From IMG/VR virus record IMGVR_UViG_2744054675_000005, positions 1 to 6,961 of that record: a stretch of DNA of 6,961 nucleotides. One strand, given 5' to 3'. This DNA is from a virus. Lineage: Duplodnaviria; Heunggongvirae; Uroviricota; Caudoviricetes. The number at the start of each line of letters is the position of its first letter. Within the stretch, counting starts at the first letter, position 1. The translations under genes were made by a program, and so were the position numbers. Below the pieces are notes generated by a model. It worked only from the letters and a program-made list of their open reading frames with translations, was not told the DNA's origin and ran no database searches. Positions 1 through 6,961 of the stretch are shown here, one piece after another.

Positions 1-1108
1 CCAGTTGCAGGGAAGAGTATCTGCTATAAGAAAAATCACATACGTAATACCCTTCTGGCATATATGCAGCAACACTTTCCTCATCAGGAGCACATCCGGT
101 ATGATATGCACTAATTTTTGCACCAAAGCTACCATGAATTCCAACGTAGAACTTTCGAGCACCTGAATACGGATAGAAATTAAGTTCAGCTTTTTGAGTT
201 ACAATAAATGCACAAACATCGCTATCATCTCTATTTTCTTCAATCTGAATAGCAAATACAGGACTTTTTGCTGCATCGCAAATGTAAAATAAATATTTGT
301 ATTCGTAATACGTCCTAACAGTTTTAGTAAACAAACTGGTATCAGAGAAAACCACTGAGTCTTCTGATATTATTTTAATCCATGATAAGTCACATCCTGC
401 TGAAATTTCTATTTGCTCATTGAGCACAAAACCGGAAAGAATTTTAATTATGCAAAAATCAATGCCATTTTTCCATAGTGGACGCAGTGCAACAGCTGAG
501 TTTAGAGCATCACTAATAGATTTAAAATTACCATATTCCCCAACTGTTATTGTGAATGCATACCTGGAATTAAATACTGCGGCACTCTCTCCAGAGTTAA
601 TAGCTGCAGATATCATGTCATAATTTGATATAAAATCATTTGGCGTGATTATTTCTGCGTTTTTATTGTGCTGTGTTCTAAGTTTTGAATTTACATAAAC
701 ACTTTTAACTGCAATACGGGAGTCGTCAACAAGTATTTCATTACCCTCTGTTGCTAACTCTTGTCTTAACTGATCCGGGTCATACTTCAGCACATTCGGA
801 AAATAGAACTGCTGCACACCGTACGCATCATAAACAGCCATAGAATGGCCCTGTACAGTAACGAATTTGGCAATCTGTCCGTTATATACCGGATATCCAG
901 CAGCGTTAATGATGATTGGTTGCGAAACAGGAACGTGAGATCCATCTTCGTTCTCTACATAAACCTGAATCTGGTTTTCAGGATTTACCGGGTCAGTGTC
1001 AATTTTACCGATATAAATTTTGCCATTAGCTACGGCTTTAAAAGAACGCGCCATAGTGAAGAGTTGCGAAGGCATCGATACGATCACATTGGCTGTAATG
1101 TCTGTCAT
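1..1108 (-). CDS. Tailspike protein, 5' portion (3' end lies beyond the window start). Conserved P22-type N-terminal head-binding domain followed by a divergent receptor-binding domain.
   Basis: Hand translation of the minus strand from ATG at 1108..1106 gives [113 protein letters not shown]..., which closely matches the P22 gp9 N-terminus as I recall it ([11 protein letters not shown]...[34 protein letters not shown]...[12 protein letters not shown]...NVLKYDPDQ). I scanned this frame triplet by triplet and found no stop codon from 1108 down to position 2. SD GGAG lies 8 nt upstream (complement of 1117..1120). Not in the ORF track, presumably because its stop is outside the window. Confidence 0.85.
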
Positions 1109-1165: not shown

Positions 1166-1190
1166 TAAAAAAACCCAGCCGAAGCTGGGT
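1166..1190 (-). terminator. Rho-independent terminator downstream of ant
   Basis: Minus-strand RNA reads ACCCAGC-UUCG-GCUGGGU followed by UUUUUUU: a 7-bp GC-rich stem (1173..1179 with 1184..1190), a UUCG tetraloop, and a U7 tract (plus-strand A run 1166..1172). It lies between the ant stop (1209) and the tailspike start (1108). Confidence 0.7.
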
Positions 1191-1208
1191 CGTTGCGTTG
1201 GTTATCTG

Positions 1209-2111
1209 TCAGTAGTTATGTGCTGAAGGAGGTAATTCTTTATTCTTAAGTCTCATCCATGCGGAAAGATTCGTTGGTCCGTCTGGCTCATTAATATCAA
1301 CATCTCGTGTGTGGTTTATTAAAACGTCTCTCGCCATTCCGATAACATACGAGAATTCATGACCGTAGTCGTAGCATCTGCCGGAATAGTTCGATTGAAT
1401 TTGTTTTAATGCCGGATACAGTTCGCGGAATAATGCCTGTGAACGGTTAGCATAATCCCATAGCCATACAAGGCTGTTTGCTTCTTTTGCAGAAAGCTCG
1501 TTGGTTTTCTTCTCTTGTTTGCCAATGAGCTCACCTTCAAGCACTACCCTGTGGATGTACTCTACTGCTTGCGGTATCTGAGATGCATCAAGCTCTTCAA
1601 TACTTTCCACATTGAAACGCTGATGAATCATTGCATAAGCTTCTGGGTACATTAGATGCTTTTTGCTGACCAGCATATTTACAGCATCACGAAGCGGAGT
1701 CCTGTCATCAACAGATGTTTTCTTACGTGCATTTTCTTCCTTTCCCTTTGTCCAGTAGTCATGCAGCACAGTAAAGCATTCTTCCTGGTACTGAATAAGT
1801 TTATCGCGGATGTCAGCACGAACTTTCTCAGGGTTGATGCTGAACAGCCATCCATTTAACTTCTTCAAAGGAAGGCAGAGTAGCTTACGAAGCTTCCCAT
1901 CAGCGGCAACCATGTTCATATGAACACAGTTGAATTTGCTAATCTGCTTCATGAGTTTTGTTTGCTGCGTTGACCAGCTCATTCCAAGGTTTTCAACGAT
2001 TGGCTTCATCGCAACATATGCAACTCCGGCAGCCATGGCGGTGATAATTTGCTGACCGTTGAATGGTACGTAAGAGGTGTTCACTGCTTCTAAAATTGCT
2101 ATACTATTCAT
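1209..2111 (-). CDS. ant: Antirepressor Ant (300 aa)
   Basis: The ORF track lists 1209..2141, but position 2141 is a TTG. The ATG at 2111..2109 has SD GGAGA (complement of 2121..2125) 9 nt upstream and gives exactly 300 aa beginning [53 protein letters not shown]..., which matches my recollection of P22 Ant (length and N-terminus). The position arc -> ant -> tailspike reproduces P22 immI synteny. Confidence 0.9.
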
Positions 2112-2185
2112 GTTGGTTTTTCTCCAAGGATTTACCGACAACCGAAGCCCTGACTGTTACCGCAGTTGGGGCTTCAACTTTTCAC
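2112..2185 (+). ncRNA. Candidate sar-like antisense RNA covering the ant ribosome-binding site
   Basis: A -10-like TATACT at 2100..2105 (inside the first codons of ant, plus strand) would start a transcript near 2112 that is antisense to the ant SD (2121..2125). It would end at a hairpin (gaagccc 2144..2150 pairs with gggcttc 2169..2175, with an inner actg/cagt stem) followed by the U-rich run aacttttcacttcttt. Size (about 70 nt) and position mirror P22 sar. The -35 is weak (tgttca 2078..2083). Confidence 0.35.
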
Positions 2186-2398
2186 TTCTTTAAAGTGCCT
2201 ACCTTCTACAGTTGCTCTGAGATAAAAATTCTTATCTTTACCGTTTAGTGCTTCCCAAGCATCAACAATGCACTTATTACAGATGTGGACTTCTCGATAA
2301 CCAATAGCTTTCCTGTCAATATTAGTGAACATAACAGCTTCTTTATCTGTCAATGTGGATGCATGACAGAAGTCGCAATCTATATAAGATACCTTCAT
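2174..2398 (-). CDS. Small Cys4 zinc-ribbon protein (74 aa) inserted between arc and ant
   Basis: ORF MKVSYIDCDFCHASTLTDKEAVMFTNIDRKAIGYREVHICNKCIVDAWEALNGKDKNFYLRATVEGRHFKEVKS carries two CxxC pairs (C8/C11 and C40/C43). Its ATG (2398..2396) overlaps the arc stop codon (GTATGA), with a G-rich SD-like stretch (GAGAGGGG) just upstream inside the 3' end of arc. Same strand and operon as arc and ant. Confidence 0.55.
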   Translation of the reverse strand: MKVSYIDCDFCHASTLTDKEAVMFTNIDRKAIGYREVHICNKCIVDAWEALNGKDKNFYLRATVEGRHFKEVKS

Positions 2399-2553
2399 AC
2401 CGTTATCCCCTCTCTCTTCAGGCTGTCCAACACTCGCTTGTAAATCTCAGAGTTAACAGATCGCCCGTTCTCTTCAGCTACCTTGCGCACCAAATCCAAT
2501 ACTTCTTTAGGCCACCGCAAATTGAACTGAGGCATTTTTCTTGCACCTTGCAT
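2395..2553 (-). CDS. arc: Arc repressor (52 aa, ribbon-helix-helix)
   Basis: Hand translation of the minus strand gives MQGARKMPQFNLRWPKEVLDLVRKVAEENGRSVNSEIYKRVLDSLKREGITV, near-identical to P22 Arc as I recall it (MKGMSKMPQFNLRWPREVLDLVRKVAEENGRSVNSEIYQRV...), including the DNA-contacting strand PQFNLRW. SD GGAG sits 6 nt upstream of ATG 2553. Missing from the ORF track because it is shorter than 61 aa. An in-frame upstream ATG at 2574 (MSEMELN-) has no SD and no counterpart in P22 Arc. Confidence 0.85.
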   Translation of the reverse strand: MQGARKMPQFNLRWPKEVLDLVRKVAEENGRSVNSEIYKRVLDSLKREGITV

Positions 2554-2577
2554 ATTCAACTCCATTTCACTCATTGA

Positions 2578-2590
2578 TAGTACCGTACTA
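2578..2590. promoter_or_regulatory. Perfect 13-bp palindrome TAGTAC-C-GTACTA; candidate Mnt-type operator at the Pant start site
   Basis: Positions 2578..2590 form a perfect inverted repeat around a central C. The core ACGGT (read on the minus strand) is shared with the centre of the P22 Mnt operator AGGTCCACGGTGGACCT as I recall it. It sits just downstream of the predicted Pant -10 and just upstream of the predicted Pmnt -35, the arrangement expected for an operator that represses Pant and autoregulates Pmnt. Confidence 0.5.
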
Positions 2591-2593
2591 CTA

Positions 2594-2622
2594 TTGAAAG
2601 CGTACTACTACCGTTCTAGCAT
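2594..2622 (+). promoter_or_regulatory. Candidate Pmnt promoter (-35 TTGAAA, 17-bp spacer, -10 TAGCAT)
   Basis: TTGAAA at 2594..2599 and TAGCAT at 2617..2622, followed by SD AAGGAG (2635..2640) and the GTG start of mnt at 2647. The spacer contains the second copy of the CGTACTACTA repeat (2601..2610; first copy 2584..2593). Confidence 0.4.
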
Positions 2623-2627
2623 GTCAA
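2599..2627 (-). promoter_or_regulatory. Candidate Pant promoter (-35 TTGACA; weak -10 TACGCT), overlapping and divergent from Pmnt
   Basis: The minus strand reads TTGACA (complement of 2622..2627), a 17-bp spacer, then TACGCT (complement of 2599..2604). The consensus -35 matches the P22 Pant layout TTGACA-operator-(-10). The -10 is a poor match, so the exact start site is uncertain. Confidence 0.4.
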
Positions 2628-2646
2628 CAAATAAAAGGAGAACGAC

Positions 2647-2889
2647 GTGGCTAGAAATGATCCACAATTCAACGTAAGAATGCCTGATGAGATAAAACAG
2701 CAACTTACGCATATTGCTGCAACAAATCGCCGCTCGATAAACGCAGAGATTATTTCAGCTATCGAACTATGGATAAAAATTCATAAAGGGCAGCTAATAC
2801 CTTCAAGTAGTCGAATCCTGACAAAGTCTGAGCAAGAGGCGTTTGATGTAGCTATTGATGTGTTAAAACGTGTAAGAGATGGAGGATAA
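2647..2889 (+). CDS. mnt: Mnt-like repressor (80 aa, ribbon-helix-helix, maintenance-of-lysogeny type)
   Basis: GTG start with SD AAGGAG 6 nt upstream. The protein MARNDPQFNVRMPDEIKQQLTHIAATNRRSINAEIISAIELWIKIHKGQL... resembles P22 Mnt (MARDDPHFNFRMPMEVREKL...ANGRSMNSELL...) as I recall it. Divergent from arc across a short shared control region, as in P22. Confidence 0.85.
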   Translation: MARNDPQFNVRMPDEIKQQLTHIAATNRRSINAEIISAIELWIKIHKGQLIPSSSRILTKSEQEAFDVAIDVLKRVRDGG

Positions 2890-3504: not shown

Positions 3505-3536
3505 AAAAAACCCACCTGACGGTGGGTTTCATTTCT
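3505..3536. terminator. Bidirectional rho-independent terminator between the lipoprotein gene and the mnt-side accessory genes
   Basis: Stem cccacc (3511..3516) pairs with ggtggg (3521..3526) around loop tgac, extendable to 9 bp by A/T pairs. On the minus strand it is followed by UUUUUU-AU; on the plus strand by UUUCAUUUCUU. Confidence 0.65.
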
Positions 3537-3955
3537 TAATCTTGCTTCGTGGAAGGTATAAGAGATGCGTTTGCCTCTTTTGGCTTCAAGGTATACATCC
3601 CACCATTAAATGGATCAACAGCAAGCCAACCAATTAACCCACCAAACACAAGGTTTCCACCAATATACCAACCATTAGCATTGGCTTTGATTGGCAGGGT
3701 AACTGGTTCGTACCCATCCTTTTCCATAGTGATCTGGTAGCTCTTTTTGCCAAAATAACTACCATCTGACTTGGCAAGAGTTACTCCTTGTGGAGTTTTA
3801 CCTTGCGCAACAATCACACCTGATTCATCTTTTACCTTAAAGCTCGCACCAGAAGGATTGCTGTTCACTTGCACAAGTTGCGTTTCATCACCAACAATAG
3901 TTGCGCACCCAGATAACATGATAGCGCCAGCAACGACGCTAATAATCCTCTTCAT
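3536..3955 (-). CDS. Lipoprotein (139 aa from MKRIIS; the alternative ATG at 3967 adds MEID) with a PEGA-like beta domain and a Gly-rich C-terminal segment; sits in the sieA-equivalent position
   Basis: Signal peptide with lipobox MKRIISVVAGAIMLSG|C. The mature part SNPSGASFKVKDESGVIVAQGKTPQGVTL...YQITMEKDGYEPVTLPI fits the PEGA-domain pattern (P-x-G-A ... G-x-TP ... K-x-GY). C-terminal GWYIGGNLVFGGLIGWLAVDPFNGGMY. Located directly downstream of the large ejection-protein gene on the same strand. Confidence 0.8.
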   Translation of the reverse strand: MKRIISVVAGAIMLSGCATIVGDETQLVQVNSNPSGASFKVKDESGVIVAQGKTPQGVTLAKSDGSYFGKKSYQITMEKDGYEPVTLPIKANANGWYIGGNLVFGGLIGWLAVDPFNGGMYTLKPKEANASLIPSTKQD

Positions 3956-4050
3956 ATCAATTTCCATATCTAAAAAACCGGAAACATCCTAATGACAAAC
4001 TATTCAAATGTGAAGCACGAGATAAGATCAATCCATCCGTGGACGACTAA

Positions 4051-6162
4051 TTACTCCTGTGTCATTCCGCTTAGCGATGCCACAATCCCAGCCCTCGACA
4101 AACGCTGGAACTCTTCGTTTCCTAGTGCATCGCGAATTGCTTTTACGGCGGCCTTATTTGCCATAAATCTGCGTTCCGCCGCCGCTAATGCTTCTTTACT
4201 TCCGCCAGCTCTTACTGCTTTCGTGGCTTCCTGAACTGCTTTCTCTATCGCATATCGGCCGCTACGCGTGGTGGCAATTTTAGATACAGCACCTTTTAAC
4301 CCGGCGCCAACTAAAGCACCTGCGGCAGCGCCTGCAATGCCCCCTCCTGCTCCACCAACAATGGCACCTGATGTTGAGTTGGCAATTGCATTTAACACTG
4401 TTGATGTGACGTTGGATAAACCGGCATCCAGATCGCGTAGTACATTGGCAGTTCTCCCTGTTCTTTCAATATACTGCTGAGGTTTCACTGCTGCTCTTGC
4501 AAGAGTGCCATATGCATCAGCAATTCTTCCGAGTTCTGAGGAATATCTGCTAATGGCTTTTACATTTTGTGGGGTAAGTATCCCTGCGATATGGTTAATT
4601 CCTGCTGCATCAGCTTTGCCACCACGTACACCATGCGAGATAGCATCTTGCAACATTGATGATATAGCAGGAACACGCTCTGATTCTGGCAGCGCGCGGA
4701 TCATAGAATGGAACCCAGCAGGACCATTAAGACCTTTAGCTGACGATGATTGAAGGGATTTTACTCCATTCGTAATCAGTGCATCTGTTGCCAAATCACG
4801 CCCGAAAACAGACTCTGCACTCTCTTGTGCTGATAACCTCGCTTTAGACAGATCATTAGCTTTCTGCCAGTCATCAAGAAATCCGCCGTTTTCCGCCATT
4901 GTGCGCATATCATCAGTAATTGCCCGGCGTATTTCCCCTGCTCTCCTTGCCGCATTTGCCTCTCCGCTACGCTTATATTTTTGCTCCGCATCAGCAAATT
5001 TCGCTCTCCATGCTTTCATGCCATCAAATGTTACTCCACCTTGATTGTTTGCCTGAACAAACTGTTTCATTTCAGGAGTAAGCGGTATGCCAGCAGATCG
5101 CTCTGCCTGAATAACGGCATTACCATTTAGCATTCTTGCTTTTTGATTTGGCATTGTTGACCGCACGTCATCCCATGCCGCGCGCTCGGCATCCTTCATC
5201 TGATCAAGATTTTGAAGAATCCTTTGTTTTATAGCCGCACTTTTTTCTGATGCCGTTCCAGATGCGGCCCCAAATTCATCAAGGTTTCGACTTAACTTTG
5301 ATGATATTTCGTTAAATGCTGCCTGATGGGCGTCCTGAACAATTCCTGGTGTTGATGCCAATGCGCCTTCGGCTTGTGCAATTCCACGACTTCCAGATCG
5401 CATTCCTGGTGTTAATGCGTTTATATCAATTCCAGCAGACTCAGCCGCTTTTGCTACATCTTCGGACACATTAGCGGCCTGACTGGCAATTGACTGACGC
5501 CCAGCACCTGACTTTGCCATCCTGGAAACATCATTAGCAGAATTCAGTGCTGCACCACCAAGAGCCTGTGAAACCCTTGGCGCAATAACGCGCCCGACAC
5601 CTGAAAGAACGCCTTGAGCACCAATATTGATACCACCGTTAATGGCAGCATTTTGTGCAAAGTCGCCCTCCTGATTTGCAGCATCAGCAAGAGAACCTGC
5701 AATCATGTTTCCTGCGGAACCGATATCTCCAGCGAGCTTTGCTGGCGCTCCAGCAGCTTTTGCCGCTGTGCCAATTGGCAGGAGATACCCACCAATTGTT
5801 TCACCGGCTTGCGCATAAGGGTCTGTCGGTCGATCGACTGGACGATAGACATCATCCAAAACCTTGGGGCCACCAAGCCCCTGGCTGATTGCATTAATCA
5901 GACTTGCGCCACCCTGCAATACGTCAAATGGTATGTTTACCAGACCACGGCCAGCCTGTTCTGCAATTTGCCCTGCGCTTTGACCACCAGTGAGCCAGTC
6001 AGTGGCTTTTCCTACCAGAGATTGTTCTTCTGGCTGCGATTGGTTTTGAGTGGATTGATCACCAGAAGACAGCATCTGAGCAATGCGACGTGCTCCCTCA
6101 GTATCACCGGCAGCATCAGCATTCCTTAACGCCGTCATCAACTGTTCGCGACTATAGGCCAT
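4051..6162 (-). CDS. Virion ejection (DNA-transfer) protein, P22 gp16-like by position (703 aa)
   Basis: Long GC-rich ORF with SD GGAGGG. Its start is coupled to the upstream ORF through a TAATG stop/start overlap at 6160..6164. It is the last large gene before the sieA/mnt region, which is where gene 16 sits in P22. The protein is Ala/Gly/Gln-rich and has a glycine-zipper-like hydrophobic stretch [27 protein letters not shown] (about 4288..4368). Function is assigned by synteny and composition only. Confidence 0.7.
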
Positions 6163-6961
6163 TACTGCCCTCCGAGATATTTATTAATCAGGTCATCATC
6201 AGAAAGCTGCTGTTGAGACGGTTGTATGTCCTTCCCGTATTTCTGTTGCATACGTTTCTGAGCCATCTCAGTGGTTTTTATGATTGTTTTGATAGCTGCT
6301 CTGGCTGATTTTTCAGACTGATTTGGGGACAAACTACCAATAGCATCCATTACCTTTTGCCCCTCGGCATTACTTAAAGCCCCCATCCCTTTCATCTGCT
6401 GAATGCCAGATAAGAATCCCTGAGATTTCAGTGTGTCAACCAGAGTTTCTGTATCAGCAGCCTCTGTTCCTGGAATGAATCTACTCGATAGTGGGTTTAG
6501 GTTTGTTCCGAAATATCCAGTGAATCCTGGGCTATTAAGAACTTTTGTAGCCGTCTCTATCGTTCTGGAAAGATTATCCATTCCAGAGTTGTACGCATCA
6601 GCCTTATCTCGCTTTGCCTGCTCCATAGCTTGCTGATTCTGCAATCTCTTGTCATGCAATTCAGCAAGTTTTAAGGCATTAGTTTCATTTGCGATGAGTC
6701 TGTCGTATTTCTTGTCCTCTAATTCCATTCGACGAAGATTGACATTTTGTTGCGCAATATTGTTGCTTGCCCACCCTCTGGCATTTGTCATGTCATTATT
6801 GCGGATTGTTTCGTTAATTCTTTGCTGCTCCTGCTGGCGACCAACCATCTTATCCTGATAATCCAGCATTTTATCCGGACCAACAGCCCCTAGCGTCATA
6901 GTAGTCAGCATGTGTGATAGCTGCTCTGGATTCTGGATACCTGTCTGAATCATCCAGTCAG
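6162..6961 (-). CDS. Virion ejection protein, P22 gp20-like by position (C-terminal portion; 5' end beyond the window)
   Basis: The reading frame stays open to the window edge (codons upstream of the listed Met at 6953 are not stops). Gln/Asn-rich with coiled-coil-like segments; the stop overlaps the start of the 703-aa gene. Assigned by synteny only. Confidence 0.6.

Follow-up and report, generated by a model that had tools for sequence, protein, structure and literature searches.

The locus considered here raises the question of whether the short spacer upstream of a prophage antirepressor gene (ant) encodes the antisense RNA sar of phage P22, and whether such an RNA can persist in spite of an open reading frame (ORF) located between arc and ant. 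The stretch of DNA analysed, called the window in the following, comprises 6,961 bp. It belongs to a P22-like prophage, of which it represents the immunity I region ("ant moron"); the late operon is read from the minus strand (Table 1). The sar module with mnt, arc and ant is flanked by the tailspike N-terminus and the gp16/gp20-like genes, and this is the placement of immunity I. The Ant protein is 86% identical to P22 Ant, the 5' 111 bases of ant contained in our nucleotide query (2001-2111) are approximately 90% identical to P22 ant DNA, and the intrinsic terminator behind ant matches the annotated P22 ant terminator in position. The mnt-like region shares 99.6% identity with the arc/mnt region of phage Emek.

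Table 1. Features of the window, with genes of the minus strand listed in their order of transcription
Feature	Position	Strand	Remarks
gp20-like and gp16-like DNA-transfer genes	6953..4051	(-)	first in transcription order
Lipoprotein gene	3967..3536	(-)	between the gp16-like gene and arc in transcription order
arc (Arc repressor)	2574..2395	(-)	Pfam Arc, 91.6 bits; start at ATG 2574 or ATG 2553
74-aa CxxC...CxxC ORF	2398..2174	(-)	between arc and ant; TGA in the hairpin base
ant (antirepressor, 300 aa)	2111..1209	(-)	proposed sar target gene; Pfam P22_AR_N, 151.6 bits, and P22_AR_C, 103.6 bits
Intrinsic terminator	1172..1191	(-)	after ant, before the tailspike gene; terminator scan
Tailspike gene, N-terminal part	1108..1	(-)	last in transcription order
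mnt-like repressor gene	2647..2889	(+)	divergent from arc; Pfam Arc domain, 47.3 bits; followed by two small ORFs
Psar -35-like hexamer GTGTTC	2077..2082	(+)	aligned (alignment A1) to the 5' end of the annotated P22 promoter (NC_002371)
Psar extended -10 element TGCTATACT	2097..2105	(+)	putative; inside ant codons 2-5 of the opposite strand
sar antisense RNA, 68-69 nt	2112..2180	(+)	predicted; Rfam RF00262; +1 at G2112, adjoining the ant ATG
sar stem-loop I	2112..2139	(+)	MFE fold; 6-bp stem GUUGGU/ACCGAC, 16-nt loop
Anti-Shine-Dalgarno CUCC in loop I	2122..2125	(+)	complement of the ant SD GGAG
sar stem-loop II, terminator hairpin	2144..2175	(+)	RNAfold; 14 bp, 2144-2157 paired with 2162-2175, loop UACC
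sar terminator U-tract UUUU	2179..2182	(+)	four U only; AAC between hairpin and UUUU

Among all Rfam 15 families, cmscan reported only one match to the window at the gathering threshold. This match is RF00262 (sar RNA) on the plus strand at 2112-2179, with a score of 97.4 bits (gathering score 43), an E-value of 1.1e-20 and coverage of the model positions 1-68 of 68. Our own covariance model (R1) assigns 101.1 bits to the same element. In comparison to the annotated sar misc_RNA of P22 (NC_002371), 67 of 68 positions are identical. In the blastn alignment 86 of 87 positions agree over 2095-2181, a stretch that spans the last 11 of the 29 bases of the annotated Psar and the whole annotated sar, and in alignment A1 the annotated sar promoter, misc_RNA and terminator of P22 occupy exactly the aligned columns. 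Identity to P22 amounts to 98.9% over 2095-2181 versus 90.1% over 2001-2181, and from these two values about 82% follows for the adjacent coding part of ant (2001-2094). Judged by these identities, conservation is much higher in the sar segment than in the ant codons next to it.

There are only few differences to the P22 element. A C at position 2136 (T in P22) turns a G-U pair of stem I into a G-C pair, the last base of the -35 hexamer is C and not A, and the U-tract reads UUUU in place of the UUUA found in P22. Furthermore, the gene ending at the terminator is the 74-aa zinc-ribbon ORF, whereas it is arc in P22, and the host is E. coli and not Salmonella. The start next to the ant ATG, the two stem-loops with an anti-SD in loop I and a terminator hairpin, and the mnt-arc-ant context upstream of the tailspike gene are the same in both. 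Hence, it is very probable that the plus strand at 2112-2179/2180 encodes sar, the cis-antisense RNA of a P22-like immunity I region, in an E. coli prophage. As far as its sequence goes, the element is an already known one, a near-identical copy of P22 sar. The earlier note on this DNA, which had suspected the P22 sar arrangement here, was correct in this respect, although the element is shorter than the 2100-2185 given there.

The predicted structure is in good agreement with this assignment. RNAfold yields -33.1 kcal/mol for a 96-nt stretch (z = -6.1), and none of 200 shuffles was equally stable, so that the fold-energy check proposed for the hairpin region turned out positive; the exact 69-nt RNA has an MFE of -32.4 kcal/mol. 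The MFE structure contains both expected stem-loops, the first with the anti-SD in its large loop and the second with the features of an intrinsic terminator. Of the hairpin and U-rich run claimed earlier, the hairpin is there with its full 14 bp, but the U-run consists of merely four U. In the structural alignment of 61 distinct relatives, stem I shows changes on both sides at all six pairs, while in stem II covariation occurs at four of the 14 pairs, with G-C to A-U swaps in the upper stem. Altogether, 98.4% of the cells pair and 10 pairs show double changes, counts that come from a covariance-model alignment fitted to the model and thus favour the structure. None of 500 shuffles reached the observed pairing values, and pairing drops to 27-47% when the partners are slid by 1-3 columns. 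A MAFFT alignment of the sar variants had been dropped for the pair counts because in it the 3' arm of stem I was shifted by one column between the classes; it was replaced by folding of each sequence together with the covariance-model alignment. When folded individually, all of the 29 distinct 5' halves form a hairpin beginning at +1, and their stem I arms fall into the classes GUUGGU/ACYGAC, RUCAAU/GUUGAU, GUCGU/ACGAU and GUCGA/UCGAU.

The base of stem II reads CCGAAGCCC...GGGGCUUCA in all 13 phage and prophage loci of a further alignment (A3), whose members were chosen without the hairpin pattern, 11 of them via blastn, which may have seeded on this block, and one via protein lookup. The invariance of this base in our larger IMG/VR survey (see below) is partly imposed by the hairpin pattern used for the search. 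A related base, GAAGCC...GGGGCUUC, is present in a locus of K. grimontii that was found with a protein seed.

The earlier note had also pointed to a -10-like TATACT on the opposite strand of the ant 5' end, and it is indeed present at 2100-2105 (+). Together with the preceding TGC it constitutes an extended -10 element that is identical to the one of P22, and the putative promoter Psar as a whole agrees with the annotated P22 Psar in 28 of 29 positions. The -35 hexamer is weak (two of six matches to the consensus); GTGTTC is the commonest variant among 136 loci. In these loci, the -10 hexamer is TATACT in 114 cases, TA...T is kept in all 136, and a TGn precedes it in 132. This conservation persists in ant alleles whose neighbouring codons differ, the rare Ile codon ATA being part of it, and speaks for selection acting on the promoter as such. 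In a generic consensus scan, no promoter was called at Psar and no terminator at the sar hairpin. Both can be explained by the poor -35 hexamer and a T-run of less than five. Since the experimentally defined Psar and sar terminator of P22 are equal or weaker features as annotated and do not satisfy its criteria either, we do not count this result against sar.

The position of the element relative to ant is that of an antisense RNA to the ant leader. The start codon ATG of ant is complementary to 2109-2111 and the ant SD GGAG to 2122-2125, so that the 5' end of sar abuts the start codon and the SD is covered; on the minus strand, the ant leader reads GGAGAAAAACCAACATG. The postulated transcript path across the ant SD thus exists on the plus strand from G2112 onwards. 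RNA polymerase would start at Psar, whose extended -10 element TGCTATACT is embedded in ant codons 2-5, and transcription would begin at G2112, the base adjoining the ant start codon. The transcript would then cross the ant ribosome-binding site in antisense direction and end at the 14-bp hairpin and the UUUU following it. As expected from P22, the RNA of 68-69 nt would fold into two stem-loops and expose the anti-SD CUCC in loop I. It may then pair with the ant leader on Pant transcripts as well as on read-through transcripts of the late operon heading to the tailspike gene, which would hide the ant SD and block translation of Ant. In view of the genetics and biochemistry of P22, such a cis-antisense control of Ant translation is most likely also exerted in the prophage studied here.

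Since 1987, sar of P22 has served as a textbook example of cis-antisense regulation: an RNA of 68-69 nt that pairs with the ant leader and thereby prevents Ant translation. It matters late in infection, when late-operon transcripts, which can be stopped by neither Arc nor Mnt, traverse ant on their way to the tailspike gene. The primary work on P22 sar is said to be that of Liao et al. 1987, Wu et al. 1987 and Schaefer & McClure 1997. In P22 infection sar has been detected by sRNA-seq (PMC13397905), and it is annotated in epsilon34 (PMC2629481). A block of translation from Plate transcripts by sar is described in PMC12111858, where, citing Wu et al. 1987, the blocked gene is named as arc; ant as the target rests on the P22 work and PMC13397905.

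Two other small phage RNAs invite comparison. The C4 antisense RNA of the phages P1 and P7 likewise prevents synthesis of an antirepressor (ant). It belongs to a different RNA family (RF01695), for which no match was obtained in the window. Processing of C4 takes place from the same strand and its targets are sites located upstream; it is not a convergent cis-antisense RNA. The lambda OOP RNA acts through RNase III-dependent decay and not by masking of a ribosome-binding site. It resembles sar in being a short, terminator-ended cis-antisense RNA that lowers a regulator of the lysis-lysogeny decision (PMC5415839). Unlike sar, it overlaps the 3' end of its target gene cII, and the two sequences are unrelated.

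The comparison to closer relatives is of special interest with respect to the ORF between arc and ant. The sar elements of epsilon34, 611R6, phiv205-1, Emek, EC.P3, CUS-3 and Kapi1 all score above the Rfam threshold (57-96 bits), and several of them have other stem I sequences with compensating arms. As in the window, an ORF is located between arc and ant in 611R6, phiv205-1, Emek and EC.P3, but these ORFs are unrelated to the 74-aa ORF (15-21% identity). The 14 related loci from phages and prophages that were collected by similarity are all recognised as sar (44-98 bits), and a pattern scan of IMG/VR for the hairpin added 120 further loci. Of 137 loci carrying the hairpin, 75 have the layout arc-ant as in P22 and 59 the layout arc-X-ant, with sar being kept in every one of the latter. 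X belongs to at least seven mutually unrelated families: a CUS-3-like zinc ribbon (67 aa, 19 loci), a phiv205-1-like ORF (57 aa, 10 loci), the 74-aa ORF of the window (9 loci), an EC.P3-like membrane protein (89 aa, 9 loci), an ORF similar to orf73 of Emek (73 aa, 8 loci), an unnamed ORF of 80 aa (2 loci) and a ClpX-type zinc finger (60 aa, 2 loci). More distant relatives of ant were found by a protein-seeded scan with one genome per species. Among the nine loci obtained, the one from K. grimontii possesses a sub-threshold sar-like element and the others have other RNAs or none; the ant homolog from Azomonas, for instance, is flanked by RNAs of the C4 and isrK families.

The point at which the different ORFs end is always the same. 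Every X stops on the TGA complementary to the TCA in GGGGCUUCA, within the base of the hairpin (59 of 59 arc-X-ant loci), and the sar U-tract is complementary to its last codons (AAA AGT, AAA CAG or AAA CGT). In the window, the stop codon TGA of the 74-aa ORF (complement of 2174-2176) overlaps the last two bases of the stem, which bears out the former observation that the hairpin abuts the stop codon of the inserted ORF; the U-tract is the complement of a Lys codon and part of a Ser codon. In the arc-ant loci the stop of the upstream gene lies mostly within about 10 nt of the hairpin-base TGA, and in three loci at +32. The sar terminator of the window does not end at the arc stop but at that of the 74-aa ORF. 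We consider this a variation of the context and not a reason for exclusion, since 59 of the 137 loci are built in the same way and still score as sar. The junction of the 74-aa ORF coincides precisely with the 3' base of the hairpin. As this position is past the 3' end of sar, the whole sar-complementary leader of ant is intact. Rather than interrupting the element, the 74-aa ORF fills a variable cargo slot located upstream of the sar terminator. The sar element has been kept, as supposed in the earlier note, but the notion of its being retained despite an insertion overstated the oddity of this arrangement.

The classes of sar 5' halves travel with the ant alleles and have been shuffled against the X and arc families, most combinations being present. 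Therefore, the hairpin is also a mosaic joint. This reading fits the "rapid flux" described for the ant moron in P22-like phages (PMC2629481) and with the CUS-3 record, in which the region is labelled "boundary sequence". One could hence assume that sar is a silent relic or hitch-hiker in this prophage, a sequence kept between selected genes as a recombination joint, with a Psar that no longer fires. The hairpin base common to loci with unrelated flanks on both sides, such as Emek, would fit such a view, as would the free reassortment of the 5' halves with the downstream ORF families, the boundary label of CUS-3, and the weak -35 hexamer at which the consensus scan called no promoter. However, the compensatory changes at all six stem I pairs indicate that RNA structure is under selection, whereas a DNA joint could do without such structure, and the extended -10 element with its rare Ile codon is kept across divergent ant alleles. 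Moreover, the near-identical P22 allele is transcribed, and one sequence can be both a recombination joint and a working RNA. A mere relic is thus very unlikely.

The constant position of the stop codons could also indicate that the hairpin serves mainly the sense strand, as a structure of the arc-ORF-ant mRNA at the stop codon of the upstream gene, and that an antisense transcript is secondary. Such a structure could set ant translation by ribosome-dependent unfolding or be an RNase III or stability element. As a mere speculation, a ribosome that terminates on the TGA within the hairpin might affect sar pairing or the translation of ant. In favour of this, the upstream ORF ends on the hairpin-base TGA in all 59 arc-X-ant loci and mostly close to it in the arc-ant loci, and the complementary hairpin also appears in the predicted fold of the mRNA. 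A function in the sense strand, however, leaves unexplained why an extended -10 element is present on the opposite strand with a +1 abutting the ATG, and why stem I, with the anti-SD in its loop, shows covariation. In addition, there is no T-run after the hairpin on the sense strand and hence no terminator in that direction, and the P22 work credits the phenotype to the sar RNA. We regard a mainly sense-strand role as highly improbable. That a -10-like hexamer and a GC-rich hairpin were brought together by chance is practically negligible and can be regarded as refuted, for although the hexamer TATACT by itself is common and nothing was called by the consensus scan, the Rfam E-value, the z-score of the fold and the 86 of 87 positions shared with an experimentally defined RNA locus all speak against it.

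With sar as a cis-antisense RNA, there is little new for RNA biology, since it is already a curated Rfam family. Mildly new is the observation that the sar terminator marks a conserved joint for the exchange of small ORFs, of which at least seven are unrelated and some resemble the ClpX zinc finger. The known flux of the ant moron (PMC2629481) is thereby described in more detail, and attention is drawn to uncharacterised small proteins that are co-expressed with the antirepressor. Going further, one might speculate that the sar hairpin, beyond its role as terminator, is a fixed docking joint for the arc-X-ant cargo, which is swapped at GGGGCUUCA, that it thereby delimits a hypervariable slot within the Pant operon, and that some cargoes, the 74-aa ORF of the window among them, are mimics of the ClpX zinc-binding domain (ZBD) disrupting recognition by ClpXP. 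Unrelated small ORFs would recombine in at GGGGCUUCA and borrow its TGA as stop codon, and their last residues (Lys-Ser, Lys-Gln or Lys-Arg) would be provided by the complement of the sar U-tract. The cargoes would be co-expressed with Arc and Ant, leaving the control by sar undisturbed, and free-standing ZBD mimics might hamper substrate or adaptor recognition by ClpXP in superinfection or induction. Taken as a whole, we consider this proposal rather doubtful.

The 74-aa ORF itself looks like a real gene, since its homologs in E. coli, Citrobacter and Salmonella are always found in the layout arc-ORF-ant. Its ATG overlaps the arc stop (ATGA) behind the SD-like run GAGAGGGG, and to judge from this overlap the ORF is translationally coupled to arc. 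In comparison to a homolog with 81% identity, the differences are distributed 13/6/20 over the three codon positions, and the cysteines C8, C11, C40 and C43 of the CxxC...CxxC motif are the same in seven members of the family, whose identity goes down to 44%. This family is very small: word-indexed and exhaustive HMMER searches yielded only seven clusters and five representatives, the latter among 1.8 billion proteins, and therefore no function can be transferred. The ORF is not that of Emek, 611R6 or phiv205-1, as is evident from the low identity to their ORFs and from a tblastn search without a match in 50,697 phage records.

Several comparisons tentatively suggest that the 74-aa ORF encodes a zinc ribbon similar to the ClpX ZBD. 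The ClpX C4 zinc finger (PF06689) matches it with 18.9 and 18.3 bits, which is below the gathering score of 27. The 60-aa ORF occupying the same slot in other loci (L060) passes PF06689 with 43 bits, and hhalign of the profile of the 74-aa ORF against this ClpX-type ORF gives a probability of 90.5%. A first AF2 model, built from five near-identical sequences, had a pLDDT of 49.8 and was unusable; the second reached 65.8, and the top PDB matches of this second model in Foldseek were the ClpX ZBD structures 2ds5 and 2ds6, with non-significant E-values of about 0.8-1.2. A sequence search of the PDB with the family profile returned T-cell-receptor matches alone, which were rejected as spurious.

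The recognition of sar also has consequences for the annotation of the locus. It fixes the true start of ant and explains the strong conservation of the spacer between arc and ant. In RefSeq, sar is without annotation in the E. coli carriers, as seen in the closest match inspected, and the ant call of this match begins at an upstream TTG and would traverse sar stem-loop I; arc is annotated there in a 52-aa form. Positions 2060-2420 of the window are 100% identical to chromosomes of E. coli strains from chicken; full identity over this stretch is shown, for example, by the strains VTB96933v and GPEC856. A query of 361 bases, comprising sar, the 5' end of ant and the ORF, has a partial or fuller match in 305 of 5,426 complete E. 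coli genomes, and at least 80% of it is matched in 23 of these genomes.

The spacer between arc and ant is a cargo slot. A small ORF occupies it in 59 of the 137 loci that bear the hairpin, and these ORFs belong to at least seven mutually unrelated families, which reassort freely with the sar and ant classes. All of them share their stop codon, a TGA inside the conserved hairpin base GGGGCUUCA, and the complement of the sar U-tract supplies their last codons.

Three of the families, including the window ORF (2174-2398, minus strand), a 60-aa ORF of locus L060 and the ORF at 1580-1783 (minus strand) of phage CUS-3, are zinc ribbons of the CxxC...CxxC type. The 60-aa ORF passes the Pfam model zf-C4_ClpX with 43 bits. 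The 74-aa window ORF reaches 18.9 bits with this model, which is below the threshold; hhalign of the window ORF against the 60-aa ORF gives a probability of 90.5%, and its best Foldseek matches are the ClpX zinc-binding domain structures 2ds5 and 2ds6, with an E-value of about 1. There appears to be no earlier description of free-standing proteins that resemble this domain and share a transcript with an antirepressor.

In CUS-3 (CP000711), the only annotation of positions 1518-1986 is 'bsq2 boundary sequence', and the region holds a sar RNA and two overlapping ORFs (see table); according to the epsilon34 paper (PMC2629481), CUS-3 apparently lacks arc. In the RefSeq E. coli genome L137, sar is unannotated and PGAP starts ant at an upstream TTG (window position 2141), so that the resulting 311-aa gene (4117-5052 in L137) crosses sar stem-loop I; the stretch concerned is window 2109-2141. 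The start equivalent to that of P22 is the ATG at 2111, with a GGAG 10 nt upstream.

Coordinates of the features in the window and the compared loci
Feature	Location	Strand	Remarks
Cargo-slot ORF	window 2174-2398	-	further examples in L002-L005, L010, L013, L014, L053, L060 and others
sar RNA	CUS-3 (L010), within 1518-1986		84.6 bits
67-aa zinc-ribbon ORF	CUS-3 (L010), within 1518-1986
Arc-fold ORF, overlapping	CUS-3 (L010), within 1518-1986		Pfam Arc, 33.8 bits
Divergent sar-like element	L142 2440-2507	-	Klebsiella grimontii
Divergent sar-like element	L038 4268-4337	+
RNA-family matches near ant homologue	L143 2251-2431, 4332-4513, 5376-5577		Azomonas macrocytogenes
Predicted lipoprotein, 143 aa	window 3536-3967	-	signal peptide ending in LSGC; weak PEGA-domain match
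Strong hairpin	window 3508-3529		AAACCCACC-TGAC-GGTGGGTTT

The sar architecture may extend beyond what RF00262 covers. Two divergent sar-like elements, in L142 and L038, lie under the Rfam threshold (29.4 bits with Rfam, 25.7 bits with our own covariance model) and have in common an extended -10 element, TTGCTAnAnT, and the hairpin base GA(A/G)GCC...GGGCUUC. In both loci the element starts right next to the antirepressor ATG, and a ribbon-helix-helix ORF lying upstream has its stop codon at the hairpin. The L038 copy is situated upstream of a different antirepressor, next to an S24-type repressor. Around the distant ant homologue of L143, there are repeated matches to the C4 antisense RNA, c4-a1b1 and isrK families, and RNA control at this antirepressor is of the P1/P7 type rather than sar.

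The arc-mnt intergenic region of the window (2575-2646) is 99.6% identical to that of phage Emek, and not P22-like. The window is therefore a mosaic of an Emek-like arc/mnt and a P22-like sar/ant part. This region contains repeated TAGTAGTACG motifs around TTGACA and a promoter-like site, TTGAAA-17-TAGCAT, facing mnt, which presumably represent Emek-type Arc/Mnt operators and Pant/Pmnt.

The gene of the 143-aa lipoprotein is likely a moron gene expressed from the prophage. Directly downstream of it lies the strong hairpin, which has a flanking run of T on each strand and might therefore be a bidirectional terminator.
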